A program made the translations under genes and the position numbers. Shown here piece after piece: positions 4,935 to 29,159 of a DNA stretch of 32,000 bases (positions within the stretch are counted from its first letter, which is position 1; every line of letters begins with the position of its first letter). The DNA is from Candidatus Saccharimonadota bacterium. GTDB lineage: Bacteria > Patescibacteriota > Saccharimonadia > Saccharimonadales > UBA4665. The stretch spans positions 240,001 to 272,000 of the forward strand of contig CP023991.1 in assembly GCA_003516025.1 (NCBI GenBank), in the 5' to 3' direction. Under the pieces are notes generated by a model, which did no database searches, was not told where the DNA came from, and saw only the letters and a program-made list of their open reading frames with translations.

Positions 4935-4951
4935 ACAGGTCAAATCGTTAC
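4935..4951. repeat. Cassette 1 distal arm (ACAGGTCAAATCGTTAC), followed by a G7 tract at 4963-4969
   Basis: 15/17 complementary to 7252-7268. The surrounding ~45 nt are homologous (as reverse complement) to 25076-25113 of cassette 2. Confidence 0.75.
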
Positions 4952-5168
4952 AAATCATAAATGGGGGGGTAGGTAGGCAGCGGACGAGAAAGGGAGAATA
5001 AGGAGGAGTTAGGTAATTCAAAGATGAATTAAATCTCGCATACCTATGGTATCTCTATAAACCTATCTGGTCCGCTGCGCTGTACTAACTGTACGAATAC
5101 TTACGACTGCACCGGCAGACATTGATTACGTGTAAGTAATCGCCTGGGATGCTAGCTACTGCTACTAC

Positions 5169-5191
5169 TGTCAAGGACAATTGTCCTGACA
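5169..5191. repeat. 23-nt near-perfect palindrome TGTCAAGGACAATTGTCCTGACA
   Basis: The core AGGACAATTGTCCT is a perfect 14-nt palindrome and the flanks extend it with one mismatch. It is operator-like, with unknown function. Confidence 0.5.
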
Positions 5192-5195
5192 TGCG

Positions 5196-5308
5196 CTTCA
5201 TCGGGATACCCCGAGCATTTGAGCAAACCTTGTCCACCATGCCGCTTTGTAGGCGACTGGGTATGGTGGGAGCGGCGAGCTCTCTTGCATCGGGGTATCC
5301 CGATGAAG
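5196..5308. repeat. Perfect 19-bp inverted repeat (CTTCATCGGGATACCCCGA at 5196-5214 / TCGGGGTATCCCGATGAAG at 5290-5308) with a 75-nt loop
   Basis: Read directly from the sequence. The loop contains further complementary pairs (CCACCAT/ATGGTGG and GCCGCT/AGCGGC). Confidence 0.8.
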
Positions 5309-5626
5309 AGGCTCCGTCCGCTGGTATGCGGGGTGACGGGTGCGCATGGGTGCCTTGGTAGGGCATCCGTTTACCAACATTATCCGACACGCTCGCACGC
5401 GCTGGTTGTGCCTGTAAGTTTGTGGTACAAGCCTACGTCAGATCACCGGAGTGATAACGTTTCTTGTACAGATGCCAGGTTATGGAAGACCGGCGTCTAG
5501 GTTCAGGCACATACGCGCGCAGCTGCATCGGACGATGCTAGCGGTGCTTCAGTCTGTCGACCTCAGTCAAACGGCGAATTGTAGCTGCCGAGTGATTGCC
5601 GTGAAGGCGAGAGGTTGAACAGAACT

Positions 5627-6949
5627 TCAGCAGAGGGTGATGCCGTGGTCCGCCATGTACGCCTCGGGGTCGATGTGACCACCGAAGAACGACGTACCGA
5701 CGCCAAAGTGCAGGTGCGGGCCCGTCGACTGACCACGGTTGCCCGTGTAGGCGATGAGGTCACCGGCGTTGACGTAGGTGTCGAGACCCACGTTGACGCT
5801 GTCCACGTGGCCGTACTCGGTGTACATGCCGTCGTCACCCAGGATGACCACCGCGAGGCCGAAGCCGTTGGTAGCACCTGCGCGCTTGACGTATCCGCTG
5901 GTGGCGGCGTACACCGGGTTGCCGATGGGCAGAGCCATGTCCACGCCACCGTGCTGCGTTCCCCAGCGGGGACCGAAGCCAGACGTGCAGCGGTAGCTGC
6001 TGTCGTGGAGTGGGTTCACCCAGCCGTTGTTGACCACCGGAGCGGTGCTGGCAGCGACCTCGAGGGCCGGAGCAGCGGCGGGAGTCTCCGCGGGCGTGGG
6101 CTCGGGAGCCGGCGCGGGCGGTGCGACCTGCACGGAAGTTCCGGGCAGCTTGATCACGTCGCCGGCGTAGATGACGTCGGGGTCGGTGATCTTGTCGGGG
6201 TTGAGGTTGACGATGTCAGCCACCTTGTTGGTGTCCTGGTAGGCCGCCGAAGCGATCCTGTTCAGGGTGTCACCAGACAAGATGGAGTAGTCGGTCGACT
6301 CGACGTCGGCGACGACCGGTGCGGGAGCCGGGGTGGGCTCAGGCACGGTTGCCTCGACGACGGGCTCGGGAGCCGGGGTGGGCTCAGGAGCGACAGAAGC
6401 CGCGAGGGCGACATCAGACGGAGCCTCCACCGGGACGGTGGTGACGCCAGGCTGGATGCCACCGCGGCACTGCCAGGCCTTGAGGCCCTGACCCTTGACT
6501 CCATTCCAGCCGGACACGACGCGCTCGGCGACGATGACCTGCTGGACAGGCGTGGCCTTGTCGGCGCGGGGAGCGAACTCGCCGCCTCCGTACATGAGCC
6601 AGGTGCTGGTGAGGAACTGCAGGCCACCGAAGTGGAGACCGGCCGGGTCGGCGACGTGCCAACGGAAGTCGGACTCGCAGTCGACAACGCCGGTCCAGTC
6701 GTGCTCACCGACCGTCGTGGTCTCCTCTGCCATAGCAGTGGAGGGGTGTACGAACAGGGCGGCGATGCTGATCAGGCAGGCGAACAGCGTAGCGCGGATG
6801 GCGCTGGTGCGGTTCAGCTGCAGCTCGGGCAGGCGCGGACGGAAATCCACGACGGTCTGGCCGATCAGGACGGTGTTGTGCGCGAAGAAGTACATGACTT
6901 CTCGGCTGGGGTGCTCACTTGCGCGGTGTTGCGATGACATGATTGTCAT
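5627..6949 (-). CDS. Secreted peptidoglycan hydrolase: Rpf-like transglycosylase domain + LysM + M23 (LytM) peptidase; high-GC, actinobacterial type
   Basis: Rpf-type motif DWTGVVDCESDFRWHV...GGLQFLTSTW; Pro/Ala/Glu/Thr linkers; LysM YSILSGDTLNRIASAAY...IYAGDVIKLP; M23 motifs HGGVDMA and GPHLHFGV. The AAGGAG Shine-Dalgarno (complement of 6951-6956) is better spaced for the ATG at 6940, so the start is uncertain. Confidence 0.85.
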   Translation of the reverse strand: MTIMSSQHRASEHPSREVMYFFAHNTVLIGQTVVDFRPRLPELQLNRTSAIRATLFACLISIAALFVHPSTAMAEETTTVGEHDWTGVVDCESDFRWHVADPAGLHFGGLQFLTSTWLMYGGGEFAPRADKATPVQQVIVAERVVSGWNGVKGQGLKAWQCRGGIQPGVTTVPVEAPSDVALAASVAPEPTPAPEPVVEATVPEPTPAPAPVVADVESTDYSILSGDTLNRIASAAYQDTNKVADIVNLNPDKITDPDVIYAGDVIKLPGTSVQVAPPAPAPEPTPAETPAAAPALEVAASTAPVVNNGWVNPLHDSSYRCTSGFGPRWGTQHGGVDMALPIGNPVYAATSGYVKRAGATNGFGLAVVILGDDGMYTEYGHVDSVNVGLDTYVNAGDLIAYTGNRGQSTGPHLHFGVGTSFFGGHIDPEAYMADHGITLC

Positions 6950-7047
6950 GCTCCTTGCGGGTAGGGTACTGATGGGCGTGGATGGTAGAGCGGCTCAAGC
7001 GTAATCACCAATTGTGTCGGTGAAGAGCTGAGGATGTAGCGTAGCCA

Positions 7048-7115
7048 TTCCTGGTAAGGAGGGCATCAGAATAGACTTGCCGGAAATCTACTCAAACGCC
7101 CTCCCTATACAGGAA
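7048..7115 (-). promoter_or_regulatory. Cassette 1 conserved TAGGGAG hairpin upstream of the cargo gene
   Basis: On the minus strand, TTCCTGTATAGGGAGGGC pairs with GCCCTCCTTACCAGGAA. It is positionally and sequence-homologous to hairpin 22262-22327 of cassette 2. Confidence 0.5.
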
Positions 7116-7145
7116 GGGTAAGTATTCATAACCTGCGTCCGGAGG

Positions 7146-7178
7146 CCAAAAAGAGGCCTACAACAGAGTGCAGGCCTT
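7146..7178 (-). terminator. Weak intrinsic terminator ending the cassette 1 leader RNA
   Basis: Minus strand reads GAAGGCCTGCACTCTGTTGTAGGCCTCTTTTTGG: a 6-bp AGGCCT stem, a 12-nt loop and T5. Confidence 0.4.
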
Positions 7179-7251
7179 CAGGTATGCTAAAGGGCTGAAA
7201 AGAGTGATACGAGAAGGTCTGCACTCAGTACCGGTCACAGTATTATGAACA

Positions 7252-7268
7252 GTAATGAATTGACCTGT
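7252..7268. repeat. Cassette 1 proximal arm (minus-strand reading ACAGGTCAATTCATTAC)
   Basis: 15/17 complementary to 4935-4951, 2.3 kb away. Homologous to arm 22043-22059 of cassette 2. Confidence 0.75.
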
Positions 7269-7384: not shown

Positions 7385-7413
7385 ATAGTACTATATTATA
7401 GTTAAATTGTCAA
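7385..7413 (-). promoter_or_regulatory. Sigma70-type promoter of cassette 1 (TTGACA-N17-TACTAT)
   Basis: Minus strand reads CTATTGACAATTTAACTATAATATAGTACTAT, homologous to the cassette 2 promoter TTATTGACATTTTAGCTATTTTGTGGTAGTAT. Confidence 0.55.
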
Positions 7414-7480: not shown

Positions 7481-7909
7481 TTAGGCGCTTTGCAGGGCGG
7501 TTGAATTAGTAATATTTGTTACAAGACCGGAAATAGCCATTTCGCCATTCGCATGTTTGCCGGTAATTTTGCCACGGTCTAAAAACACCTTGTAACTGCC
7601 ATCGGTAGCACGGATCCTGTACTGCACGTCATACATATCGGCCTTGCCGGTAATCAAATCGGTCATAGCCTGCATACAATGGTCGTAGTCATCAGAGTGA
7701 ACAAGATCCGTAAATGATTTATAGTGGACAAACTTACCAGCGTCTTTATCGCTATATCCCAGCATGCGAATTTTATTAAGCCCAAAAAATATTGTGCCAG
7801 AAGGCAACTCCATAAGCCACCAGGCCATATCAGCGGCTTCAATAGCATCTTCCAGGAGGCTGAATTCTTGGCCGGTTCCATAAAAACTCATATATATGTA
7901 CAGTAACAA
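7481..7909 (-). CDS. Stand-alone PAS domain protein
   Basis: 142-aa ORF with a PAS_3-like pattern: MAWWLMELPSG...LGYSDKD...VHSDDYD...YDVQYRIRATDGSYKVFLDRGKI. Confidence 0.65.
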   Translation of the reverse strand: MLLYIYMSFYGTGQEFSLLEDAIEAADMAWWLMELPSGTIFFGLNKIRMLGYSDKDAGKFVHYKSFTDLVHSDDYDHCMQAMTDLITGKADMYDVQYRIRATDGSYKVFLDRGKITGKHANGEMAISGLVTNITNSTALQSA

Positions 7910-7945: not shown

Positions 7946-9124
7946 CTAAAAATGGATAAATACCAGGTCGCCAGGGAAAATGCGGGCCGTACTGTAACGT
8001 CCGTTCCAGTTGGAGTTATACTGCGAAATATTGATTGAGCCATCACTGTTTACTGAATCGACGTACATGACATGGCCGTAGGTGCCAGTGTTGCGGACAG
8101 CCACATCGCCGGCGCGTGGGTTGCCATCTACTGGAATGCCGTCGGCCCGGGCGTTGTCGTCCCATTGTTTGGCGTTACCGAAACCGCCCCAGTATGGCAT
8201 ATGTCGGCCAGAAGCACTGACAGCCCAGGCAGTATATGATACGCATTGGCGTTGATACATGCCCCATGGGTCGGGAATGTCATTAGGCCACGGAGCATTG
8301 GCGTAGGGGTAATTCGCGCCATTAATAGCGTTGACCCCGGCCGGGGCAGCTAGTTTGGTGGTTGGGCCACTGGCAGCAGCCTGCTGGCGAAGGAAGGCGG
8401 CGTTTTCGGCAGCCTGCTGTTTTTGGAGTTGAGAGATCTGTGAATTATTAGCTGCGATCGTGGCGCTGTACTGGGCTTGCTGCGACTGATTCATGGCGAG
8501 CAGCTCATCAAGTTGGGATTTTTGGCTGGCCGTCTGTGACTGCATCGTTTTATTGTCTTCCAGTAATTGGTCAACTTGATCTTTCTGCTTTTGCTCTTGA
8601 GCCTTAAGGCTATTGATGCGATCCAGGCCCTCTTTTACGCTTGCTTGAGCCGAGATGGTGTATTGTTCGCGGTCGACATATTCGCTGAGATTCTTACTTG
8701 AGGCCATCATCTCGAGCATGCTCATATCGTTTTCTATGTATAATTTGCGAACGCTCTGCGCTAAGATATGCTGCTGCTCGGCAATTTTGGCCTGTGTCTC
8801 GGCAATTTTTTGACTAATACGGGCTTGCTCAGCCTGGTTTACGCTTATTTGCGTACTTAAATTCGAAAGTGTCCTCTGTAGGGAACTTATCTGACCTTCT
8901 AGTGTAGTGGCGGTTGTTTGTAAGTCTGTCTTCGTGGACTGATTAGCGGCATTCTGGTTTTGGAGGTTTTTGATTTGGGTATTGTAGTCTACCGCTGCGG
9001 CGGTCGAGGTGACGGAAGTCGCTGCTATGGTCGCTACCGCTAGCAGTAGTGATACTGTTTTTACGTTTATATTTTTCTTAGTACAAAAACGCGCGTAAGA
9101 AAGAAAACCCATGACCCCCCTCAA
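7946..9124 (-). CDS. PcsB-like secreted peptidoglycan hydrolase (coiled coil + C-terminal CHAP domain)
   Basis: Signal/TM segment, about 200 aa of Gln-rich heptad-like coiled coil, then CHAP motifs QCVSYTAWAV (Cys) and GHVMYVDSV (His). Confidence 0.8.
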   Translation of the reverse strand: MRGVMGFLSYARFCTKKNINVKTVSLLLAVATIAATSVTSTAAAVDYNTQIKNLQNQNAANQSTKTDLQTTATTLEGQISSLQRTLSNLSTQISVNQAEQARISQKIAETQAKIAEQQHILAQSVRKLYIENDMSMLEMMASSKNLSEYVDREQYTISAQASVKEGLDRINSLKAQEQKQKDQVDQLLEDNKTMQSQTASQKSQLDELLAMNQSQQAQYSATIAANNSQISQLQKQQAAENAAFLRQQAAASGPTTKLAAPAGVNAINGANYPYANAPWPNDIPDPWGMYQRQCVSYTAWAVSASGRHMPYWGGFGNAKQWDDNARADGIPVDGNPRAGDVAVRNTGTYGHVMYVDSVNSDGSINISQYNSNWNGRYSTARIFPGDLVFIHF

Positions 9125-11057: not shown

Positions 11058-11414
11058 AAGACCCTCCTATGGTTTGTATGTACTCCTATTTCAGTCGCAC
11101 GCGCACGAAGTGTCTGTTAAATATTAGACCGAGCTTCAAACCACCACAGTTAATAACCTAGGCTTTATTGCTGCCGAGGCAGAATAAGCGGTCATAAGAC
11201 AGAGCTTTAATCTTATAGGGGGACGATCCAACTTGTTCAATACCCCAGCCATAGTACAGGGTCGTCCCGGGGGTATCGTTGCAGCGGCTGGCAGGGCTTA
11301 TTTTGCTGACATTATCTGCTCGTTTCAAGACTTTGTATGCGGCTAGCGCGTCAGAGCAGGCTAACTTTTTGGCGTTGAGGTGGCTGAGGGATATTTTTCT
11401 GTATGAGCTCCTGT

Positions 11415-12171: not shown

Positions 12172-12813
12172 TTATTTCACCAATCTTACGTCGGCACCAT
12201 TCATCACCAGTACCTCACCATCGTGAAGTGCCCTATATGGCATATTGTTTTCTTCAAAGTATTGAACGACTTTTTCAATCCCTTCGCTTTCGGGATGCTC
12301 GGAACGATAGTGTGGTGCAATCGAGAACTCTACAAAGCCAAGTCCTTCCCAGATAGTTTCCGTATCATAGCCTTCGGGTATTTGTTCTGGATTATCAACA
12401 AGCTCTATACCTTTTAATGTTTGAGTTGCAACACAACTGCCAGCACTAAAACCGCCATAAACCAGCGTTTCATTGGTGACCAAATCTTTGATGGATCTAT
12501 CAAAGCCACTCATTTTCATGGCTTGGCGTAATGCAAAGGAATTGCCGCCCATTACCCAAACCAGCCCATAGCTTTCAAGTTTGGCTTTTAGTGAGTCGCT
12601 ATCATCAAAATAATCCCGCAAATCTAATTCTTCGGCAGTAAGCCCGATTGTTTTCATTTTTTCTGTTTCGTTTGCTAAATAGGTTGGGCGTTTTTCATTA
12701 CCGTAAATATCTGCTGCATTCATAATAATTCCAACTTTTTTATTGGAGCCAACCAGTTTTGCTAATTCTTCCGGATGATTGCCAAGAAAGTATGACGACA
12801 GATATAACTTCAT
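12172..12813 (-). CDS. Peptidase S51 (dipeptidase E-like) family protein
   Basis: 213-aa ORF with the GGNSFALRQAM and YGGFSAGS nucleophile-elbow pattern of S51 peptidases. Confidence 0.7.
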   Translation of the reverse strand: MKLYLSSYFLGNHPEELAKLVGSNKKVGIIMNAADIYGNEKRPTYLANETEKMKTIGLTAEELDLRDYFDDSDSLKAKLESYGLVWVMGGNSFALRQAMKMSGFDRSIKDLVTNETLVYGGFSAGSCVATQTLKGIELVDNPEQIPEGYDTETIWEGLGFVEFSIAPHYRSEHPESEGIEKVVQYFEENNMPYRALHDGEVLVMNGADVRLVK

Positions 12814-12828
12814 ATGATTACTATACCA

Positions 12829-12859
12829 AATAAAAAGACTCCCCTGACGAGAAGTCTTT
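12829..12859 (-). terminator. Intrinsic terminator after the 12912-13703 gene
   Basis: Minus strand reads AAAGACT-tctcgtcagggg-AGTCTTTTTATTT. Confidence 0.6.
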
Positions 12860-12873
12860 CATAGTGCTTATGC

Positions 12874-12884
12874 TTGGAGGGCCA
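12874..12884. repeat. TTGGAGGGCCA: second internal copy of the tRNA-Lys 3' end
   Basis: Identical to 12136-12146. It lies between two single-gene cassettes. Confidence 0.7.
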
Positions 12885-12911
12885 TTGTCAGCTCTGTAGC
12901 ATCTAATGTAG

Positions 12912-13703
12912 CTAACGGTACAGGCTCGATAAGACCTCACGTAATACTATAATCCTGTCTTCACCAGGTGGCCCTGAATAGCCAGCTTGTGAGCTGACAA
13001 CGAGTACCTGGTTCGGTGATATGCGGTACAAGCCTAGTCGCCAATGTGCTTTTTTTGAGCTACCCGGCAAGTCCTCTCCATCTGGCCCATAAAGGGCAAT
13101 GCGCTCGAGATCTAACTCGTTCGCGATCTTAAACCATTCTTTACCAAAGGCAAATACTTCTTTCAGTTGCATCTCACGAACAGCATCCCAGATATATTTA
13201 CGTATGAGGTCTGCAGGCGGCTGCATCTTACCGTTCACGCCAAATGAATGCCACGGATAAAGTTCGAAATTCAGAATATCATGGATAGAAGCGGTTGGAT
13301 CATTTAGCCATCGCCGAGTGAATCCGATAGCCTTGACCCAGTATTTACTTTTGCCGCCGTGAAACGCATCCCATGACTTGGGATCAGCAGCGGGACTTCG
13401 CTCTAAGCAATAGGTGTAGCCCTGTTTTGCGATTCTTTTCGCCCAAACTCCATTTTTCGATTGTAGATCATCGTAGCCAATACCAGGATTAAGACCAAGT
13501 ATTACAACCCGAGGCTCATGTTGAATGCCACGTATATCACCTACGATCGGATCTGGGTAGTGCCGTAGATCTACTTTACCCACCCCTTTGCCTTGATAGC
13601 TAGCTTGCCAGCGCACAAGGTCAGGATCTGTCATGGGTTTGCCTTCCACCCAGTCCGCTAGGGCCTGGTCCCAAAAGTCTGCAATTCTTGTGCGCGAATC
13701 CAT
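12912..13703 (-). CDS. Hypothetical protein with possible uracil-DNA-glycosylase-superfamily motifs
   Basis: 263-aa ORF. RVVILGLNPG resembles UDG/MUG motif A (GxNPG) and ELYPWHSFG resembles motif B (HPS-type). The functional assignment is weak. Confidence 0.35.
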   Translation of the reverse strand: MDSRTRIADFWDQALADWVEGKPMTDPDLVRWQASYQGKGVGKVDLRHYPDPIVGDIRGIQHEPRVVILGLNPGIGYDDLQSKNGVWAKRIAKQGYTYCLERSPAADPKSWDAFHGGKSKYWVKAIGFTRRWLNDPTASIHDILNFELYPWHSFGVNGKMQPPADLIRKYIWDAVREMQLKEVFAFGKEWFKIANELDLERIALYGPDGEDLPGSSKKAHWRLGLYRISPNQVLVVSSQAGYSGPPGEDRIIVLREVLSSLYR

Positions 13704-13715
13704 AGGGCTTACTAT

Positions 13716-13746
13716 AACAAAAGCGACTTCGTTATAACGAAGTCGC
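13716..13746 (-). terminator. Intrinsic terminator downstream of tRNA-Lys
   Basis: Perfect 9-bp palindrome GCGACTTCG-TTATAA-CGAAGTCGC (13723-13746), followed on the minus strand by TTTTGTT. Confidence 0.6.
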
Positions 13747-13776
13747 TAGATAAGAAAATAGATTTTATAACGGAAC

Positions 13777-13853
13777 TGGAGGGCCAGGAGGGACTCGAAC
13801 CCTCGACACCCTGCTTAAGAGGCAGGTGCTCTAACCGGCTGAGCTACTGGCCC
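13777..13853 (-). tRNA. tRNA-Lys (anticodon CUU)
   Basis: Minus strand reads GGGCCAGTAGCTCAGCCGGTTAGAGCACCTGCCTCTTAAGCAGGGTGTCGAGGGTTCGAGTCCCTCCTGGCCCTCCA. It has a cloverleaf, the anticodon loop CTCTTAA, a GTTCGAG T-loop and an encoded CCA. Confidence 0.9.
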
Positions 13854-13973
13854 GGGCTGTAATTCCAAAGCTAGAATTTTGAATACAACGGAGTTACTTT
13901 AGCAAAAAATGGTAGTTTTGACAAGACATAATACCGGCAGAAACATACACTCCTATCTGTTACAATAATACAA

Positions 13974-21903: not shown

Positions 21904-21932
21904 TTGACATTTTAGCTATTTTGTGGTAGTAT
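21904..21932 (+). promoter_or_regulatory. Sigma70-type promoter of cassette 2 (TTGACA-N17-TAGTAT with an upstream TGg)
   Basis: TTGACA at 21904-21909, an exact 17-nt spacer and TAGTAT at 21927-21932. It starts 4 nt after the kinase stop codon. Confidence 0.6.
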
Positions 21933-22042
21933 GTGTACATCCTGATGAGTGGGTAGACAGAGGACGTCAATTATGATGAAAAACTGTTGCTGTCTAAGTG
22001 CTTCGGTACGTTAGGTGGGCCATTTCGACAGGGGTAATTTAA

Positions 22043-22059
22043 CAAGTCGAATCATTACA
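22043..22059. repeat. Cassette 2 proximal arm CAAGTCGAATCATTACA
   Basis: 17/17 complementary to 25097-25113, 3.0 kb downstream. Similarity continues imperfectly for about 10 more nt. Confidence 0.85.
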
Positions 22060-22133
22060 GTGCATTGATACGTACATGTATCAAATAACTGCAAGGGACG
22101 ACAGACGAAACCAGGGCAGGCTTTTATATGCAA

Positions 22134-22160
22134 CACACCGCGGAAGTGGTGTGGTTTTTT
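22134..22160 (+). terminator. Intrinsic terminator (CACACCGC-GGAA-GTGGTGTG + GTTTTTT)
   Basis: 8-bp stem including one G:U pair, a GGAA tetraloop and T6. Confidence 0.65.
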
Positions 22161-22261
22161 GCGTGTAAGAGCCTGCACTGGTTGAGTGTAAGTTTGAGTT
22201 TCGGCTCCTTACTTCCCGTGCAGATAATCTACGCACTACAACCATACTTTGCTTTTACTGT

Positions 22262-22327
22262 CCCATTGTAGGGAGTGGCTTGCTTGAGAAAACATTGTTG
22301 TCTCCAGCCAGTCACTCCCTACAGGGG
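22262..22327 (+). promoter_or_regulatory. Cassette 2 conserved TAGGGAG hairpin upstream of the cargo genes
   Basis: TGTAGGGAGTG (22267-22277) pairs with CACTCCCTACA (22313-22323), flanked by CCC/GGG. Homologous to 7048-7115. Confidence 0.5.
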
Positions 22328-22397
22328 ATTCAGTGATCTATGCTTTGGCAATCCCGCCACTGTATAGCCCAACGTCCCCTTTTTGGAGGGAACACCC

Positions 22398-22970
22398 GTG
22401 CCAACCCCCGAAGCATCTCTGGCTAAGGCTGAGCGACTCGAACGAGAGGCCGCGCAAGCCCGCCAGCGTGCCGCCGACTTGGCTGCTGCCCAAGAGCTCC
22501 GTCACAAGAAGGAGCAGGCGGAAGAGCAGTTCAGGGACGACGAGCACCGTTTCAACGACAAGGTCAACCGTCTCGTCAAGATCAGCTTCCCCCGCGAGGG
22601 CAAGAGGCCTGACCTGGCGAACTACGACAAGGACCGCGTCGGCCAGATCGAGCAAGTCATCGACGAGATCCTGGCACTATGGGAACCCCCGCAGCCTGCC
22701 CCGGCAGCGCAGCCCGATCCCGTGCCAACCCCCGCGCCTGACCCCGCAGCGGTCCTGCAGCCCGATCCCGATCCGGCCGCAGTTCCGCAGCCCGACCCCC
22801 AGGTCGTTCCCGACCCGGACCCCAACGGTCAGCCGACCGCCGCCATCCCGCAGGCCCAGCCCGCTGCTCCGCAGTCCGGTTCTGGTGCCGTACGAAGGCC
22901 CCCGGCCGCTGGCCACGGATTCCGCCGTCTACTCGACAAGGCAGGAAGCGCCTTCACCGGCCAATCCTGA
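22398..22970 (+). CDS. High-GC hypothetical protein: charged coiled-coil N-terminus plus Pro/Asp/Ala/Gln-rich repeats
   Basis: Frame of track ORF 22383-22970. I prefer the GTG at 22398, which has GGAGGG 7 nt upstream. Codons are GC3-rich. No domain recognised. Confidence 0.55.
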   Translation: MPTPEASLAKAERLEREAAQARQRAADLAAAQELRHKKEQAEEQFRDDEHRFNDKVNRLVKISFPREGKRPDLANYDKDRVGQIEQVIDEILALWEPPQPAPAAQPDPVPTPAPDPAAVLQPDPDPAAVPQPDPQVVPDPDPNGQPTAAIPQAQPAAPQSGSGAVRRPPAAGHGFRRLLDKAGSAFTGQS

Positions 22971-23006
22971 TCCTTTCCTCCCCATACTGGAAAGAAGGTC
23001 CTCGCG

Positions 23007-24851
23007 ATGTCTTACTGGCTCGCTTTCGTCATCATCGTGGCCATCACGGCTGCGGTGTGGATGTACGCCAACGCTCGTTCCTACCGACGGACCCACCGGT
23101 TCGTCATGACGCGTAACCGCCTCGGACTCGCCTTGTGCGGCTTCCTGGTGGTCTACCTGCTGACCCAGCTCCTCTGGAGTCCGCTGAGCGGCTTCCGAGT
23201 CGTCAACAACCGCGGCAACCACTGGTTCACCAACCCGTGGAGCCCGTTCTGGCCTTCGGAGTCCTTCATGGGACGTGTGGTCTTCGTGGTGATCGTCGTG
23301 ATCCTGGTCTTCGCGACCGCGGTCATCGCCTTCGCCCTCCGAAGCAACGCCCGTTCCCGCGGCATCGCGCTCTGCGTGATCGTCCTGGTCGTGCTGGTCC
23401 TGGCCCTGATCTTCTCCCCCGCCTTCAAGCGGTGGATGTGGATCGCTCTGGCCATCGGCCTGCTCGCCTGGCTGCTGCCGGTTGGCATCCACTCCAAGTG
23501 GACCGCCAAGTTGCAGGCCGTCGTGGTGCTGCTGGTGGGGCTGTTCCTCCTCGTTCCTGCCATCTGGGCCATCGACTACATGGACGTCACTGCGGTGAGT
23601 CACATGTCAGCGGCCGCTGATGACAACGGGGATGCGGAGAAGCCGTCGTTCACGTGCGCCGACAAGGGTGACCTGTCCCTCGACTGTGAGGTGTCAGACA
23701 CCGGACTCGGCAACGACGTCACCACCCACTGGGAGGTGACCGACAAGGAGGGCAACGAGGTCATCGCGCAGGCCGACCTGGACAAGCTGGAGCACACGCT
23801 CAAGCCCAACCTGAAGGTCGGCACGGCCGGTGACTTCACGGTGACCTTCTGGGCGACCAAGGGTGACGAGCAGACCGACAAGGTCTCGCACGACTACCCC
23901 GTCGCTCAGCCGGCAGCTGCCTGTGCCAACGGCTTCATCGTGAAGCAGCCTGGCCGTGAGGACTACAACCTCAACGACCAGGGTGCGGCGATCCGTGGTG
24001 CAGGCAGTGAGGAGGCGTTCCGTCAGCAGATCATCACCCAAGCGGCCGAAGACCCGCTGACGCTGTACGTCTACTACATCAACTCGCCGGCACAGAAGAC
24101 CGACCCGCTGCCCCTCAAGACGGAGCAGGACACCAACCCGGCCACCATCCTCGTCGAGGGCGGTGACATCAAGGACGGTGCCTGCTACTCCCAGAGGGCC
24201 GTCGACGCCTACAACATGTGGCTCCCGCTGTGGAAGGTCGCCGACCTCACCCACCAGGAGAGTGTCACCCACCAGGGTGCCAACTACGGCATCGAGAATG
24301 GTCAGCTCGTCCAGGATGATGGTGTCAACGTCCCCAACGAAGAGGGTGTCGACATCGCCTACCGTGACGCCAACGGCAACATCGTCGGTGAGCACTCGGC
24401 GCTCTACGTCTGCACCCAGCCGACCACCGGCGAAGCCACTCCCGGCGTCCCGCAGGGTCACACCAACAACCAGGAGGTTGAACAGCACGACGTTCCTACC
24501 GGAGACACCCCTGAGGAGGACACGCCCGACCAGGACACCCCCGACCAGGACACCCCCGAGGAGGACACGCCCGACACCGGCAAGCACGCCAGCCAGGCCC
24601 CGGTCAGTTCCGCCCCCGTCGCAACCGACCCTCGGGTCAACCCCAACGCGGGCGGCAACGGAACGCGGCCTTCGTCGTCTTCTTCGGCTCGTCCGACGCA
24701 GGCGCCGCAGCCCCAGCCCACCATGAGCGAGACACCTTCCGAGGTGCAGCAGCCCGTGCCGGCTGGTCCCGTAGCAACTTCCACGGCTGTCGCCACGGGA
24801 GATCCTGCTGCGGGTGGCGGTGACAGTGATGGGGACGGTATCCCGGACTGA
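23007..24851 (+). CDS. High-GC hypothetical membrane protein (about 6 N-terminal TM helices plus a large extracytoplasmic domain and acidic/Pro-rich tail)
   Basis: 614-aa ORF with GC3-rich codons and GGAAAGAAGG upstream. The TM block spans residues ~1-190, followed by a Cys-containing soluble region, DTPxx repeats and a Pro/Ser/Ala-rich C-terminus. No domain recognised. Confidence 0.7.
   Translation: MSYWLAFVIIVAITAAVWMYANARSYRRTHRFVMTRNRLGLALCGFLVVYLLTQLLWSPLSGFRVVNNRGNHWFTNPWSPFWPSESFMGRVVFVVIVVILVFATAVIAFALRSNARSRGIALCVIVLVVLVLALIFSPAFKRWMWIALAIGLLAWLLPVGIHSKWTAKLQAVVVLLVGLFLLVPAIWAIDYMDVTAVSHMSAAADDNGDAEKPSFTCADKGDLSLDCEVSDTGLGNDVTTHWEVTDKEGNEVIAQADLDKLEHTLKPNLKVGTAGDFTVTFWATKGDEQTDKVSHDYPVAQPAAACANGFIVKQPGREDYNLNDQGAAIRGAGSEEAFRQQIITQAAEDPLTLYVYYINSPAQKTDPLPLKTEQDTNPATILVEGGDIKDGACYSQRAVDAYNMWLPLWKVADLTHQESVTHQGANYGIENGQLVQDDGVNVPNEEGVDIAYRDANGNIVGEHSALYVCTQPTTGEATPGVPQGHTNNQEVEQHDVPTGDTPEEDTPDQDTPDQDTPEEDTPDTGKHASQAPVSSAPVATDPRVNPNAGGNGTRPSSSSSARPTQAPQPQPTMSETPSEVQQPVPAGPVATSTAVATGDPAAGGGDSDGDGIPD
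24504..24578 (+). repeat. Five tandem 15-nt repeats encoding DTP(E/D)(E/Q/T)
   Basis: GACACCCCTGAGGAG GACACGCCCGACCAG GACACCCCCGACCAG GACACCCCCGAGGAG GACACGCCCGACACC. Confidence 0.9.
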
Positions 24852-24867
24852 TCACTGTCTGTGACAC

Positions 24868-24943
24868 CCAGGGTTCCCCGGGACACGCACTTCGCTCACG
24901 CGAGGCGCATGGTAGCTTCGGCTGCTTGTCCCGGGGACCCTGG
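24868..24943 (+). terminator. GC-rich 17-bp hairpin at the end of island 2 (terminator-like, no U tract)
   Basis: CCAGGGTTCCCCGGGACA (24868-24885) pairs with TGTCCCGGGGACCCTGG (24927-24943). G+C drops immediately afterwards. Confidence 0.45.
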
Positions 24944-25096
24944 TTCCACAAATGTAATTGCAAAAAAGTATGACGTGTAGATGCGTTTTGTAGGGTGGTT
25001 GTAAGACTAAAAGTTGAAGTGTTGTTGGCCTTCGCCGACTCCATTCCTTTTATGAAATAACAACCGCCCTGCAATTACCCCCCCATTAATGTGTAT

Positions 25097-25113
25097 TGTA
25101 ATGATTCGACTTG
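25097..25113. repeat. Cassette 2 distal arm TGTAATGATTCGACTTG, preceded by a C7 tract at 25078-25084
   Basis: Perfect complement of 22043-22059. The stretch 25076-25113 is homologous to the reverse complement of 4935-4972. Confidence 0.85.
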
Positions 25114-25166
25114 CCCGGCAGCCGCCTCCGCAAGAGCAGCGTACCTTAAAAATTCGTTAAGTGGCC

Positions 25167-25195
25167 TTGACTAATCATTGTGCTTGTGATACAAT
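25167..25195 (+). promoter_or_regulatory. Putative promoter of the LPXTG protein gene (TTGACT-N17-TACAAT with an upstream TGa)
   Basis: TTGACT at 25167-25172, a 17-nt spacer and TACAAT at 25190-25195. Confidence 0.5.
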
Positions 25196-25316
25196 AAGCA
25201 TAACGAATGAAGTGGGCCGTAGTTGTCATGTCGGTATAACCGCCGACGGACTTTTAACAATTTAGCGCATTATGTAACTATTTTAAGTAACTAATCTACA
25301 CATTATGGAGGTGGAT

Positions 25317-26894
25317 ATGAAACTATTAACCCGTTTCAAAACTGTTTCACGCCGTTCCATCGCGATCATGGGCGCAGGACTGATGCTTTTTTCAGTCGCA
25401 GCTGTAGCCCTGCCTAAGTTTACTCAGGCCGCCAATGGTTCTGACCGTGAAATCAAAGCTTATACCGAAGGTATGGCTGGTTTCGACCACGTGCAATTTA
25501 ACTCCTTTACGGGAGTTCCAAACATCGGTGACGAACGTCAGTTCTTCACTGGTATGTATGACGGCGCTAACACGCCATTCTATGACACCCTCAGCGGTGC
25601 CAAGAGCGGTGACACTATGCTCGTCCGCGTATACGTTCACAACAACGCAGATAGCAGCTTGAATGCAAGCGGTGCCGGCGTTGCCAAGAACACTAAAGTC
25701 CGTGTTGCTTTGCCAACCGGTATGGCTACTACGCAAACTGCAACCGCATTTGTAAGTGCCGATAATGCTCAGCCGCAGATCGTCGAAGACAACTTCAGTA
25801 TTACTGCTGATAGTGCTGTCAATATGTCGTACGTTCCTGGTTCAGCTACTATTAAGACTAACTACCAGGACAAAGCCTTGAGTGACGATATCGTTACTAA
25901 CGGCGTTCTGGTTGGTGACAACAACACGAATGGTGATATGCCTGGCTGTTTTGACCACGTAGCCCTCGTAACTTTTAAAGTTAAGTTGACTGCCCCAGGT
26001 TATAGCCTGGACAAGAAGGTCCGTTTACACGGTACTTCTACATTCACTGAACAAGTTACTGCTAAGGCTGGCGACAAAGTCGACTTTGCTTTAGCATTTA
26101 AGAACAATGGTTCTACGACGTTGAACCAGGTTGTTCTTGGCGACCGTTTACCTGTTGGCCTAAAGTACGACTCAAGCATCGTTGCTGAGTGGAACTCAAG
26201 CCTGACTGGCAATAAGTGGACTCCTGTATCCAACAACGATTGGATCAAGGGCGGTATTAATATCGGTAATTACGCTGCTGGAGCTGCTGGCTACGTTCGC
26301 TTTACGGCTATCGTAGACGACGCCTCTAAATTGCAGTGTGGCCTCAACCGCATCACCAATGTTGGTTTTGCTAAGCCAGCCGACCAAGGCACTATCGAAG
26401 ATTCGGCCGAAGTCGATGTGACCAAGGAATGCCAGGAAGAGACCCCAACACCGGTTTACAGCTGTGACCTGCTCGAAATCACGAAGGATGACGCGTCTAA
26501 GACCGTTACCATCAAGACTATGAACACCACTGCTAAAAACGGTGCTACCCTAAAGAGCGTTGAGCTCAACTGGGGCGAAAACGGTGTAAACAACCTGACA
26601 ACCAACACACCAGTTGGCCAGACACACACCTACGCTGGTAATGGCCCATTCACCATCACAGCGACCCCAACCTTTACTGTTAACGGTAAAGACGTAAAAG
26701 CTCCTACCAACGCTAACTGCGCCAAGCAGGTAAGCTTTACAACCCCAACTACCCCTGAGACTCCTGTAACACCAGAAACTCCAACTGAGTTGCCAAACAC
26801 TGGCGCCGGTGACCTCGTCAGCATTTTTGCTGCTGTAGTTGTCCTGGGCGCTGCAATGCACCGCCTGTTCCTGAGCCGTCGCTTAACCCGCTAA
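25317..26894 (+). CDS. LPXTG-anchored cell-surface protein (sortase substrate)
   Basis: I prefer the ATG at 25317, which has GGAGGTGG upstream; the track ORF starts at 25305. It has a signal peptide, beta-rich repeat-like domains, and the C-terminal sorting signal ELPNTGAG + hydrophobic stretch + RRLTR. Confidence 0.85.
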   Translation: MKLLTRFKTVSRRSIAIMGAGLMLFSVAAVALPKFTQAANGSDREIKAYTEGMAGFDHVQFNSFTGVPNIGDERQFFTGMYDGANTPFYDTLSGAKSGDTMLVRVYVHNNADSSLNASGAGVAKNTKVRVALPTGMATTQTATAFVSADNAQPQIVEDNFSITADSAVNMSYVPGSATIKTNYQDKALSDDIVTNGVLVGDNNTNGDMPGCFDHVALVTFKVKLTAPGYSLDKKVRLHGTSTFTEQVTAKAGDKVDFALAFKNNGSTTLNQVVLGDRLPVGLKYDSSIVAEWNSSLTGNKWTPVSNNDWIKGGINIGNYAAGAAGYVRFTAIVDDASKLQCGLNRITNVGFAKPADQGTIEDSAEVDVTKECQEETPTPVYSCDLLEITKDDASKTVTIKTMNTTAKNGATLKSVELNWGENGVNNLTTNTPVGQTHTYAGNGPFTITATPTFTVNGKDVKAPTNANCAKQVSFTTPTTPETPVTPETPTELPNTGAGDLVSIFAAVVVLGAAMHRLFLSRRLTR

Positions 26895-27214: not shown

Positions 27215-27289
27215 CGGTCTCATCGTCTAACGGTTAGGACACCAGGTTTTCATCCTGGCAATCGGAGTTCGATTCTCCGTGAGATCACC
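27215..27289 (+). tRNA. tRNA-Glu (anticodon UUC)
   Basis: GGTCTCATCGTCTAACGGTTAGGACACCAGGTTTTCATCCTGGCAATCGGAGTTCGATTCTCCGTGAGATCACCA. It has a 7-bp acceptor stem, the anticodon loop TTTTCAT, a GTTCGAT T-loop and an encoded CCA. Confidence 0.9.
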
Positions 27290-28800
27290 AAAAGAGACTC
27301 ATCAGCTACAGATGGGTCTTTTTTCATGTTCACCAAAGAGTAAAGGGCGCTTAATTTTGGCGTTCCAAAATTATTTGTGTAGAAGTTGTACTCTATACCT
27401 TCTGGGAATATCATGCGTTGGTAGACTTCGCGCATATCGGGTGTAGCATCGGCCCATATCCGTGGCGCGTTATCCATGTAGCTCAATACGTAGTCAATGG
27501 CCTCTTGATCGGTGCCAATTTGCTGGGATAGTTTTGCAATGCTATCGGTAAGCCCTTCAATCTCCTTATTTGCTTTCAGATGTATGGATATCTTTTCCTG
27601 TTTGCTGATATCGTCGCTGACGAGCTTGTCAGTTGCTTTTTGCTTATGCTCTTCCAGGTCGTTGATCCTGTTCTGGAACTTCTTACGCTGTATGTGTAGC
27701 GTCTTGAGCTCGTCATGCCATACGCGCACGATCATAACCTTAACAAGCCGAAGGGATAGCTTATTTGGTGTTATCTGAGTAAGTAGGCCTATGAACTGTT
27801 CATTGAGCTTAAATGCAGCAATTGAAGCCTTAGAACACTTAGTGCAGTGGTACTTAGGATAGCTTTTACCACTGCCGCCAGTTGAGGCGCTCCCGCGAAC
27901 GGGGCTGCCACAAGTTGCGCAGCTTAGAAATCGGCGCAAAGGGAAATCGGGGTGGTTAACGGAGTAGCTTTCTACCTTACCGTGCTTACGCCGCTCAAGG
28001 ATGCGCTGGTTTCTCCAAAATAAGTCTTGGCTTATTATGCCCTCAAACTGGCTAGTCGGAACGTATTGGTCATTTGTATGCTGATTTCTTTCCAGACCAG
28101 CATATAAAGGGTTGCGCAGCATCTTGCCGAGTAAGCTATGGTTTAGTGATTTACCATTCGGTCGAAATAAGTCTGTTTCGTTTGCTACGGTCAGTAATTC
28201 CTTTATCGTAACGGTGTCGGTTGCGAATTCGGTCAGAAGATATGCTATCTTTTCACCAATGACAGGGTCCGCAGCCAGAATGGATTTTCCGAGTAAGTCG
28301 CGGACATTGATCAGTCCAAAGGGTGCTTTCGCCATGCGATACCCTTCATTGGCATGCCGCTTCATGTTGTCGGTAACTCGCTCCGATTTAATATCGTTGT
28401 CGACCTCGGCCATGACAGCCTTCATATAACGAAGGAGTTTATCTGATTTATTACTTACAATGTTTGAGCTAGGATCCTTGATTTCTATTTTATATTTTTT
28501 TAGCTCTGTACTGATAGCGATAAAGTCATCCATGTTTCTGGCCAAGCGGTCTACCTCGTATATGATCAAATAATGGATGTCTTTACCATGTTCTCTCAGA
28601 TAAGACAGCATATCTTGGAGCTGAGGACGATTAGCTGTCTTGGCGGATACACCTTCTTCACGAAAGGTGCGCTTAATAAGGACGCCATTTCTAAGCGCCC
28701 ATTCCTGACAACGTTCTTCTTGGTTATCAAGGCTGACGCCGTCTACCTGCTGGGTTGTTGAGACGCGTACGTATACAACAGCACGCTTTTTTATATCCAT
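27250..28800 (-). CDS. Large serine recombinase (integrase)
   Basis: 516-aa ORF with the resolvase catalytic domain AVVYVRVSTTQQ...SLDNQ...EVDRLARN, a recombinase domain, a Cys-rich zinc ribbon (CATCGSP...YHCTKC) and a coiled-coil C-terminal region. The last 40 nt overlap tRNA-Glu on the opposite strand. Confidence 0.9.
   Translation of the reverse strand: MDIKKRAVVYVRVSTTQQVDGVSLDNQEERCQEWALRNGVLIKRTFREEGVSAKTANRPQLQDMLSYLREHGKDIHYLIIYEVDRLARNMDDFIAISTELKKYKIEIKDPSSNIVSNKSDKLLRYMKAVMAEVDNDIKSERVTDNMKRHANEGYRMAKAPFGLINVRDLLGKSILAADPVIGEKIAYLLTEFATDTVTIKELLTVANETDLFRPNGKSLNHSLLGKMLRNPLYAGLERNQHTNDQYVPTSQFEGIISQDLFWRNQRILERRKHGKVESYSVNHPDFPLRRFLSCATCGSPVRGSASTGGSGKSYPKYHCTKCSKASIAAFKLNEQFIGLLTQITPNKLSLRLVKVMIVRVWHDELKTLHIQRKKFQNRINDLEEHKQKATDKLVSDDISKQEKISIHLKANKEIEGLTDSIAKLSQQIGTDQEAIDYVLSYMDNAPRIWADATPDMREVYQRMIFPEGIEYNFYTNNFGTPKLSALYSLVNMKKDPSVADESLLVISRRIELRLPG
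27294..27324 (+). terminator. Intrinsic terminator after tRNA-Glu
   Basis: AGACTCATC-agctaca-GATGGGTCT followed by TTTTTT. Confidence 0.65.
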
Positions 28801-28804
28801 TGCG

Positions 28805-29068
28805 TTATTCTACCACCGCAGATTTATGAACGGAATACTTACGGAAAATAAAACGTATGATCTGTTCCTGCTGAAGAAGGAGCTCGGTCAGTTCACCGTC
28901 GGTTAACTGGGTGGCGGACAAATCTAATAATTTACGTGCCTCTCCGACAGAGATAATTGGCTTAATATTTTGATTTTGAAGAGGTTTGGGAGCGAGTGGC
29001 CTAACCAAAGCGTCATAATGACCCTTCCTGCTTGTGCCTCTACCATGTCTGTGACAGGAGGCTTTCAC
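28805..29068 (-). CDS. Hypothetical small protein upstream of the integrase (possibly co-transcribed)
   Basis: 87-aa ORF ending 4 nt before the integrase start. No motif recognised. Confidence 0.4.
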   Translation of the reverse strand: MKASCHRHGRGTSRKGHYDALVRPLAPKPLQNQNIKPIISVGEARKLLDLSATQLTDGELTELLLQQEQIIRFIFRKYSVHKSAVVE

Positions 29069-29159
29069 CTGATCTCAGGCAAGCTTCGTGATATAACGTT
29101 TTGGCCGTGCTAGGCAATGTACTGACATTGTAACACCAACGGATGTTAATATAAGAGCT

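Follow-up and report, generated by a model that had tools for sequence, protein, structure and literature searches.

A peptidoglycan hydrolase of actinobacterial type as probable remodelled cargo of an old framed cassette in a Saccharibacteria genome

How did a GC-rich gene for a cell-wall hydrolase of actinobacterial type come to lie among genes of much lower GC content, and did it arrive there recently? The question is raised by a 32,000-nucleotide (nt) stretch of contig CP023991.1 (assembly GCA_003516025.1, positions 240,001 to 272,000), hereafter the window, in whose numbering positions are given unless another contig is named. An open reading frame (ORF) on its minus strand, at 5627-6949, encodes a predicted peptidoglycan hydrolase with an Rpf-type lytic transglycosylase domain, a LysM domain and an M23 endopeptidase domain. 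The original prediction had taken this gene to be a recently acquired, unameliorated enzyme of actinobacterial type in a Saccharibacteria-like backbone. The analysis reported here retains the type and the backbone and favours another history: we consider it probable that this two-activity hydrolase is the remodelled cargo of an old framed cassette rather than a recent insertion.

Both strands of the locus are open for 440 amino acids (aa), at 5615-6937 on the plus strand and 5627-6949 on the minus strand, as had been noted before. The GC content of the first, second and third codon positions (GC1/2/3 = 0.658/0.503/0.837) has the signature of coding sequence in the minus-strand frame, which is the real gene. 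Translation from the ATG at 6949 gives 440 aa, while the second ATG, at 6940, is the likely start; an AAGGAG Shine-Dalgarno precedes it by 10 nt, and it yields a 437-aa product identical to database protein P0001. The gene has a GC content of 0.666 against 0.48 for the window backbone (GC3 ~0.55), lying 5.7 standard deviations (SD) above equal-length backbone windows (mean 0.479, SD 0.033, maximum 0.54), and GC3 stays at 0.75-0.91 across its every segment; the 25 other large ORFs outside the two GC islands of the window have GC3 of 0.36-0.64. Four 60-nt G+C counts on which the compositional claim had first been based (38/60, 51/60, 22/60 and 35/60) proved exact on recount. Tetranucleotide distance, computed over the whole 32-kb window, singled out only 5201-7150 and 22101-25350, and together with GC3 marks the hydrolase island (island A) as anomalous. 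Codon log-likelihood under a backbone model did not discriminate it (-1.17, with backbone genes at -1.03 to -1.24), the backbone using its codons almost evenly, so that GC3 and tetranucleotide distance are the informative measures. The second island, at ~22.3-25.0 kb, is equally GC-rich and had gone unmentioned in the original prediction; we call it island B.

The three-domain architecture proposed earlier was confirmed by Pfam profiles at curated gathering cut-offs (Table 1), and every motif named in its support (DCES, GGLQF, STW, HGGVDMA and HLHFGV) was found. In the Rpf domain, the catalytic Glu lies within DCES (aa 90-93, 6671-6682), the core motifs GGLQF and STW begin at aa 108 and aa 115, and the Cys pair C91/C161 is kept, while ADPAGLHFGG stands in place of the usual NTGNGYYGG, a variant common to protein P0008; the domain aligns to the RpfB/C/E structures of M. 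tuberculosis (E = 1e-8 to 5e-6). The M23 domain contains HGGVD at aa 333 (5933-5953), YGH at aa 379 (5807-5815) and HLH at aa 412 (5699-5716), aligns end to end with its best match, PDB 9gy1 (E = 3e-29), and gives full-domain alignments also to zoocin A, LytM and lysostaphin. Judged by these motifs, both catalytic activities should be intact. LysM is flanked on both sides by Pro/Ala-rich linkers holding direct repeats (families D1-D3), and the protein as a whole is rich in Ala, Pro and Gly. An N-terminal extension of ~45 aa leads into the sole hydrophobic segment, suggesting a Sec signal or signal-anchor and thus export or membrane anchoring with the catalytic part outside. The product would then be an exported or membrane-anchored hydrolase with two predicted activities that cuts peptidoglycan outside the cell, the Rpf domain cleaving the glycan strand and the M23 zinc endopeptidase the peptide cross-links, with LysM presumably holding the enzyme on the wall.

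All named relatives of the Rpf and M23 domains belong to actinobacterial cells, conjugative plasmids or phages (Streptomyces, Geodermatophilaceae, Rhodococcus, Gordonia plasmids, and Rhodococcus and Mycobacterium phages), in line with the type assigned originally. The hydrolase forms a singleton cluster in 5.8 billion proteins, its next relative being 58% identical over only 40% of the length; no actinobacterial protein exceeds ~56% identity to it in any domain, and no close relative was found in viral contigs. Three-domain "transglycosylase family" proteins of Streptomyces are ~30% identical over the full length, M23 domains of Geodermatophilaceae, Rhodococcus and related proteins ~50-56%, and Rpf+M23 proteins encoded on Gordonia, Dietzia and Corynebacterium plasmids 40-47% in both catalytic domains, one of the plasmid genes sitting in a conjugative transfer cluster with SCO6880-family and TraM-recognition coupling proteins. 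Phage relatives include the lysin of Rhodococcus phage REQ1 (Orf63) and the minor tail protein gp6 of Rhodococcus phage Madraxi, and several of the better metagenomic matches sit in contigs of actinophage character that also encode LysA, LysB cutinase or tail proteins. A homology search with the Rpf domain only returned 7 candidates sharing words with the query, none of them named. In the M23 tree, the window domain forms a clade with P0003 and with the hydrolase of a JGI contig, L002, that is nested among actinobacterial and phage sequences beside REQ1 and Madraxi; the one Saccharibacteria backbone-type M23 included, from contig L010, falls outside this clade. In the Rpf tree, the window domain pairs with P0008 and a plasmid-type group. 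By these groupings, the catalytic modules appear to be of actinobacterial or actinobacterial-mobile-element ancestry, now residing in a Saccharibacteria genome.

Among known systems, S. coelicolor RpfD is described in two reports, each citing Sexton 2020, as an Rpf domain combined with LysM and LytM domains (PMC11583912, PMC11356341), the layout to which the protein had been likened, and one of them describes these accessory domains as boosting Rpf muralytic activity (PMC11583912). Streptomyces RpfD-type proteins share with the window protein the three domains in the same order, a length of ~400-470 aa and secretion. The window protein nevertheless appears to have the RpfD architecture without being an RpfD ortholog, because its M23 domain groups with those of Rhodococcus phages and L002 rather than with Streptomyces M23s, its Rpf domain groups with P0008 and the plasmid group, and full-length identity is ~30%; its Saccharibacterium host, long N-terminal extension and framed cassette context set it apart as well. 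The "transglycosylase family protein" WP_338857866.1 of Gordonia hongkongensis plasmid p1 resembles it in both catalytic domains (40-47% identical) and in high GC3 (0.88), but is 674 aa long, has no detected LysM and is encoded in a transfer cluster, whereas the window gene stands alone. The REQ1 lysin, Madraxi gp6 and the metagenomic actinophage proteins have the same three modules and contain the nearest named sister group of the M23 domain, but their order is Rpf-M23-LysM, their identity is ~40%, and they are phage-encoded near tail or packaging genes; all are wall-breaching enzymes acting on mycolic-acid actinobacteria. The window hydrolase is thus best described, from these comparisons, as what appears to be a new lineage occurrence and a new mosaic of known RpfD-like and plasmid/phage Rpf-M23 hydrolases, and no report of Rpf domains in Saccharibacteria was found in the literature searched.

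Three phage-like contigs among the relatives (L005, L006 and L007) have a GC content of only ~43%. Each encodes an Rpf-M23-LysM protein, with low GC3 (0.33-0.36) in L005 and L006, and therefore this architecture exists also in low-GC actinophages. Mycolata-type lysis genes are present (an Amidase_2+LGFP LysA in L005, a cutinase LysB in L005 and L006), all three contigs carry Thy1, and L006 and L007 also carry an L5_gp82-like gene.

The age of the gene at this locus can be read from its chromosomal slot. The hydrolase gene lies between a gene for a CHAP-domain protein at 7946-9124 on the minus strand and a convergent BrkB gene, in a neighbourhood of BrkB, Rhomboid, PAS, CHAP, response regulator and sortase genes. 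The CHAP hydrolase had been pointed out before; its domain was confirmed by Pfam, and its named relatives are Candidatus Saccharibacteria/Saccharimonadales. The exact hydrolase protein and every other window protein looked up fell on one 1,005,782-bp contig (NCBI, JGI, ENA, Logan), and a Saccharibacteria (Saccharimonadales) backbone with a genome of ~1 Mb, as guessed earlier, is supported by these homologs. No transfer or phage genes were found within ~15 kb of the hydrolase gene, which is not inside a transfer, tail or lysis gene cluster and so is not classed as a mobile-element hydrolase.

The same slot is occupied in L002, which encodes the nearest relative, P0002, in the order Rhomboid, BrkB, hydrolase, two ABC transporter genes, CHAP. 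Flanking orthologs of the window and L002 are only 62-70% identical, and judged by such identities the two are not sisters. The L002 hydrolase is likewise GC-rich relative to its backbone (GC3 0.72 vs ~0.60). In a third lineage, L017, the ABC genes (62-63% identity to those of L002) are followed by the same leader and then by GC-rich cargo (GC 0.66) until the contig ends. In two further contigs, L010 and L011, CHAP directly adjoins BrkB, leaving the slot empty. In L002, L009 and L017, CHAP is followed by an ABC-ATPase gene, of which L010 keeps a 32-codon remnant at 11216-11314, corresponding to about its first 30 codons; this remnant indicates that its slot was emptied by deletion of transporter and cassette. 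An old cassette with later losses would be the simplest history. Peptide-pattern scans for BrkB in genome and metagenome contigs, two collections that evidently lack the window genome itself, yielded no confirmed further syntenic relatives. A stand-alone 142-aa PAS-domain protein is encoded between the cassette and CHAP in the window (7481-7909, minus strand), a position held in L002, L017 and L009 by the two-gene ABC transporter.

The cargo itself appears to have been rebuilt. Between the window and L002, good agreement is confined to the M23 domain of the hydrolases, with 65% identity at the amino-acid and 70.6% at the nucleotide level; the two Rpf domains share 35.8% identity with one another and each 44-54% with other Rpfs, and that of L002 pairs with P0043 and a Rhodococcus phage group. 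Domain order also differs, Rpf-LysM-M23 in the window and LysM-Rpf-M23 in L002. The window hydrolase is, by its domain affinities, probably a mosaic whose M23 is sister to that of L002 and whose Rpf is of different ancestry, and modules may have been swapped within the slot in a manner typical of lysins. The cassette would have been in place between CHAP and BrkB before several lineages split, and its cargo would have been remodelled over time by module shuffling.

What makes this a cassette is the noncoding sequence on either side of the ORF (Table 1). This frame has backbone or lower GC (0.30-0.50) and is ~85% conserved with L002, above the ~66% of flanking genes. Upstream, a promoter-like box implies a 5' leader of ~438 nt, which contains the 5' arm of an inverted repeat (ACAGGTCAATTCATTACTGTTCATAA), a stem-loop (GAGTGCAGACCTTC...GAAGGCCTGCACTC), a terminator-like hairpin overlapping its 3' half, and a conserved TCCGGACGCAGG block ~190 nt ahead of the Shine-Dalgarno and ORF. 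The arm motif has 3 matches in the window, compared to 0.18 expected. The leader stem varies at 8/16 pairs on both sides and is yet paired, a score reached in 0/500 shuffles, and folds with z = -4.0 in island A and -3.8 to -6.4 across frames. L002 and L017 differ here: an outer CCGG helix surrounds the hairpin region in a larger multi-helix fold. From these features, we infer that the leader regulates the hydrolase gene, with the hairpin as a candidate attenuator. Several known devices were tried and set aside. A simple intrinsic terminator fits island A but is not cleanly conserved, given the larger fold in L002 and L017. The c-di-AMP (ydaO) riboswitch occurs upstream of actinobacterial rpf genes; it was rejected here for lack of an Rfam match. 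The 5' arm as a second promoter (TTAACA-18-CATAAT in island A) was dropped, the -10 element being weak in other frames. Neither leader nor trailer matched Rfam 15 at gathering threshold, and permissive scans gave nothing for island A and only chance-level matches (E ~3-5) for island B and the L012 cassette introduced below.

Downstream, the trailer leads to a C-run box (TACCCCCCCATT) and to the 3' arm, which lies 13 nt past the stop codon of the convergent BrkB gene. The two arms form a predicted duplex of -24.7 kcal/mol in island A, compared to -6.9 +/- 2.3 for shuffles, and across cassettes the energies are -25 to -35 against -7 to -10 kcal/mol shuffled. Over 26 positions in four cassettes (islands A and B, L002 and L012), 85.6% of pairs are standard, dropping to 26-42% when the register is slid, and 6/26 pairs are changed on both sides, a covariation score reached in 0/500 shuffles. 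Within the trailer, the box ACCTAACTCCTCCTT is similar to the anti-Shine-Dalgarno terminus of 16S rRNA, and base-pairing to the AAGGAG of the hydrolase gene would be possible; its opposite strand reads as a strong Shine-Dalgarno followed by ATG-AAT-TAA. Contigs L018 and L001 end and overlap exactly at the 19-nt inverted repeat of the trailer (5298-5322).

The same ordered frame surrounds three other cargoes: island B, the L002 cassette, and a gene in L012 (GCA_036388415.1), a distant Saccharimonadales genome. Island B (GC 0.65) has an implied leader of ~444 nt. Its cargo consists of a 195-aa coiled-coil/Pro-rich protein and a 614-aa protein with multiple transmembrane segments and a Pro/Thr/Asp-rich tail, both hypothetical; a search of annotated plasmids and phages with the 614-aa protein, of which the 195-aa protein was not part, found no homologs. 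The L012 cassette (12373-13865 of that genome) carries a gene for a 264-aa multi-transmembrane protein with GC3 of 0.69, compared to 0.37-0.46 in adjacent genes, and lies beside an orthologous seven-transmembrane histidine kinase (48% identical), that is, in the slot of island B, although its cargo is unrelated in sequence to that of island B. A composite pattern of the frame had 0 matches in genome contigs and 0 in viral contigs, and a looser pattern had one true match in metagenome contigs (L017) and one false positive in a P-type ATPase gene (L016). As far as our tools show, the framed cassette appears to be undescribed, with few sequences behind it.

Every framed cargo examined is enriched in GC3 (island A 0.84, island B 0.85, L002 0.72, L012 0.69) or, for L017, has GC of 0.66, whereas exported proteins outside frames have backbone-like GC3 (CHAP 0.545, sortase 0.539, DUF11 0.511). 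High GC would therefore not be a sign of recent arrival, because it accompanies cassette cargo in several genomes, including a distant one, and so provides no clock for transfer. Two explanations, which do not exclude each other, may account for it: cargo may be drawn repeatedly from high-GC donors, or the cassettes may be recombination hot spots in which GC3 was raised in place.

Several points weigh against this account of an old cassette with captured cargo. First, no homologs were identified for the cargo of island B and L012, so that a foreign origin is demonstrated, by phylogeny, for the hydrolase only. Second, a GC3 of 0.84 persists although the lineages have diverged far enough for synonymous sites to be expected at equilibrium. 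Third, the covariation of the frame comes from 4-5 sequences in a register set by the analyst, and the trees are neighbour-joining trees on 81-134 columns with weak support at deeper nodes. Fourth, the taxonomy of the backbone rests on the names of homologs of one neighbouring gene, and L001 and L018, used below to check the assembly, come from run SRR6241621, possibly the source assembly's own read set. Lastly, export, activity, regulation and target of the hydrolase were all read from sequence.

As to which wall the enzyme cuts, we tentatively favour that of an actinobacterial host at the attachment or contact zone, a target slightly short of an even chance in our estimate, because the closest architectural relatives cross actinobacterial walls, the gene is dispensable (the slot being empty in L010 and L011), and its modules turn over quickly. 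Alternatively, the hydrolase could be a domesticated housekeeping autolysin of foreign origin that acts with the PcsB-like CHAP protein on the Saccharibacterium's own wall, in growth, in separating cells at the septum, or in clearing space for pili or a secretion system. This would suit the envelope neighbourhood (the conserved CHAP hydrolase, two-component genes and sortase), the persistence of the gene at this slot, behind a native structured leader, in three lineages, and the action of actinobacterial Rpf/LysM/LytM proteins on their producer's own wall (PMC11356341, PMC11583912). We regard it as a serious rival, though a somewhat unlikely one: besides the dispensability of the gene, the nearest two-domain relatives serve wall penetration in plasmid transfer and phage infection, and shuffling this rapid is more like that of arms-race than of housekeeping proteins. 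Cryo-tomography has shown an environmental Saccharibacterium penetrating the Gordonia envelope, with no enzymes assigned (PMC11880426). If the host wall is the target, an enzyme predicted to be exported and to combine transglycosylase and endopeptidase would be a concrete candidate for how ultrasmall epibionts breach and feed on their hosts, both modules being of the type used by actinobacterial plasmids and phages to cross the same kind of wall.

A second alternative concerns the origin of the high GC3, which might have arisen, or be upheld, at the locus itself rather than be a donor signature. GC-biased gene conversion at a hot spot of recombination could be one cause, with the frames providing the homology along which naturally transformed strains exchange cassettes; selection at the level of mRNA is another candidate. 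GC3 enrichment of every framed cargo examined across divergent genomes, frames at or below backbone GC, different cargo in orthologous slots, and two short-read contigs that end at or just inside cassettes all fit this explanation. We find it doubtful, however, as GC1, GC2 and the Ala/Pro/Gly-rich composition are shifted too, phylogeny places the domains of the hydrolase with actinobacterial ones, frame motifs are missing from a third GC-rich block of the window genome (L003), and nothing points directly to recombination.

The arms, in turn, could be sites acting in DNA, either terminal inverted repeats of a non-autonomous, cargo-carrying element or inversion sites for phase variation. Mobile insertion cassettes, cargo elements resembling miniature inverted-repeat transposable elements (MITEs) and gene-inverting phase-variation switches all have inverted repeats that bracket passenger genes, and the cassette resembles them in this and in containing no transposase. 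The 26-nt repeats, 2.3-3.0 kb apart, bracket whole genes with the promoter-like box outside the 5' arm, the arms co-vary within a cassette, sense and antisense duplex energies differ without consistent bias, and the window encodes a large serine recombinase. Yet there are no target-site duplications and no adjacent recombinase, the 5' arm is not terminal, since islands A and B remain similar, as paralogs, for another ~120 nt outside it, up to the promoter, independent contigs show one orientation only (three assemblies), and mismatches lean to G-U in the sense strand (7 vs 3). A DNA-level role appears quite unlikely to us. Xer/dif-like and IS200/IS605-like arms were also rejected, as the arms lack half-site symmetry and are inverted rather than in the same orientation. 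Pairing in RNA is favoured by the lack of target-site duplications, the single orientation and the lean to G-U, and also because islands A and B are similar from the promoter box as far as the 3' arm, a stretch that corresponds to one transcription unit; the lack of a consistent strand bias in duplex energy speaks against deciding for it. Base-pairing between the 5' and 3' untranslated regions (UTRs) occurs in bacterial mRNAs, and leader/trailer stems bracket rRNA genes for RNase III processing. Like these, the cassette arms are complementary segments up- and downstream of a gene, 2-3 kb apart and conserved with compensatory changes; here, they bracket protein-coding cargo that varies between loci, and have a pairing predicted from their letters.

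A direct and very recent transfer from a current actinobacterial host into the window genome alone, the history first proposed, has in its favour the GC3 of 0.84 vs ~0.55, the tetranucleotide outlier and the singleton cluster. The window Rpf is, moreover, closer to actinobacterial Rpfs than to that of L002, as would be expected if the N-terminal modules, at least, had been replaced recently. Of the marks of a recent island, however, only the anomalous composition was observed: the hydrolase is not restricted to the window genome, and no mobility genes, att sites or target-site duplications were found at the island borders. The same slot and conserved native-composition frame hold a GC-rich hydrolase with a sister M23 in L002 and GC-rich cargo in L017, the emptied slot of L010 keeps its ABC remnant, other cassette cargo is GC-rich too, and actinobacterial proteins are at most ~56% identical in any domain. 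The lineage of the backbone does contain close homologs, which counts against the claim of recency, but they are GC-rich relative to their own backbone rather than similar to it in GC. Weakened by this synteny, a recent transfer is very unlikely in our judgment.

The sharp compositional contrast might suggest a chimeric or contaminated assembly, with a piece of actinobacterial DNA joined wrongly to a Saccharibacteria contig. This is effectively refuted by two independently assembled Logan contigs that match the window at 100% (L018, 2376-5322; L001, 5298-7283) and together span both junctions, covering Rhomboid and BrkB, the entire island and the native upstream region, by the presence of the gene on three contigs, among them one of 0.2-1 Mb and one of >1 Mb, by the same arrangement in relatives, and by the conserved native leader and trailer around the ORF.

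An old framed cassette with remodelled cargo, the history we prefer, would mean that strong GC anomalies in Saccharibacteria genomes need not signify recent transfer. The frame suggests an as yet undescribed device, either a regulatory RNA or one for exchanging genes, that tags a limited group of genes probably acting at the host interface, and it would offer a route to finding such genes across the group. More speculatively, and with little confidence, we suggest that Saccharimonadales may maintain a cassette platform at fixed slots that hosts interchangeable GC-rich envelope or muralytic genes, at least some captured from actinobacterial hosts or the plasmids and phages of these, with the arms controlling expression or exchange as an RNA duplex or recombination site; the Rpf module might then help to open actinobacterial host walls or even to wake hosts that are dormant.

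Table 1. Positions of domains, noncoding frame elements and the second framed cassette in the window
Feature	Position	Strand	Remarks
Rpf-type lytic transglycosylase domain (aa 83-160)	6470-6703	-	Pfam PF06737 Transglycosylas, 61.3 bits, cut-off 27
LysM domain (aa 221-269)	6143-6289	-	Pfam, 26.4 bits, cut-off 20.9; marginal but above threshold
Peptidase_M23 (LytM-type) zinc endopeptidase domain (aa 332-418)	5696-5956	-	Pfam, 83.5 bits, cut-off 28.7
Sole hydrophobic segment (aa ~50-67), then AMA|EE	6731-6802	-	Hydropathy scan
Promoter-like box TTGACA-17-TACTAT	7385-7413	-	10/12 matches; conserved in island B, L002 and L012
5' arm of cassette inverted repeat, ACAGGTCAATTCATTACTGTTCATAA, inside leader	7243-7268	-	Repeat pair I1
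Leader stem-loop GAGTGCAGACCTTC...GAAGGCCTGCACTC, variable apical loop	7163-7229	-	Repeat pair I3; RNAalifold, 8 compensatory pairs
Terminator-like hairpin (7154-7177) and T-run, overlapping 3' half of leader stem	7132-7177	-	
Conserved TCCGGACGCAGG block, after hairpin and T-run	7132-7143	-	
Trailer, ~670 nt	4961-5626	-	GC intermediate, 0.40-0.66
Perfect 19-nt inverted repeat in trailer	5196-5214 / 5290-5308		Partly conserved in L002
Trailer block conserved with L002	5275-5340		
Anti-Shine-Dalgarno-like box ACCTAACTCCTCCTT, 15 nt	5000-5014; L002 10189-10203	-; L002 +	Identical in both
C-run box TACCCCCCCATT in trailer	4960-4971	-	
3' arm of cassette inverted repeat	4935-4960	-	Complementary to 5' arm
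Island B, second framed cassette	21904-25114	+	
Island B promoter-like TTGACA-17-TAGTAT	21904-21932	+	
Island B 5' arm	22042-22067	+	
Island B leader stem	22111-22181	+	
Island B GC-rich cargo ORFs	22383-22970 and 23007-24851	+	GC3 0.85
Island B post-stop hairpin	~24867-24943	+	
Island B C-run box	25076-25087	+	
Island B 3' arm	25089-25114	+	

Several further observations concern the same genome. At another locus (L003, 289-11027, and L004), nine consecutive genes are GC3-rich (0.65-0.92) and have almost no Pfam matches; one product, 479 aa long, shows a P-loop-like motif. The block closes with an M23 paralog, P0028, whose M23 domain groups with the hydrolase of the Gordonia plasmid transfer cluster; it adjoins ordinary backbone genes (sigma-70, S11 peptidase) and has no frame motifs within. 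It may be a remnant of a conjugative system or one resembling a type IV secretion system. A copy of the Gordonia plasmid transfer cluster was rejected as its identity since only the M23 domain matches, and P0008 was rejected as a full-length relative of P0028, only the M23 domain being common.

Elsewhere in the window, the gene at 12912-13703 on the minus strand matches the anti-phage DNA glycosylase Brig1 (NCBIfam NF047634, 278 bits vs a cut-off of 230), here in a Saccharibacteria genome of ~1 Mb. The 3' end of the gene for the large serine recombinase (27250-28800, minus strand) overlaps a tRNA-Glu gene (27216-27290) and is accompanied by an SRA+HNH nuclease gene at 29160-30044; the region 27216-30044 may be an element integrated at tRNA-Glu. 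From ~27 kb onward, GC drops to 0.38-0.46.

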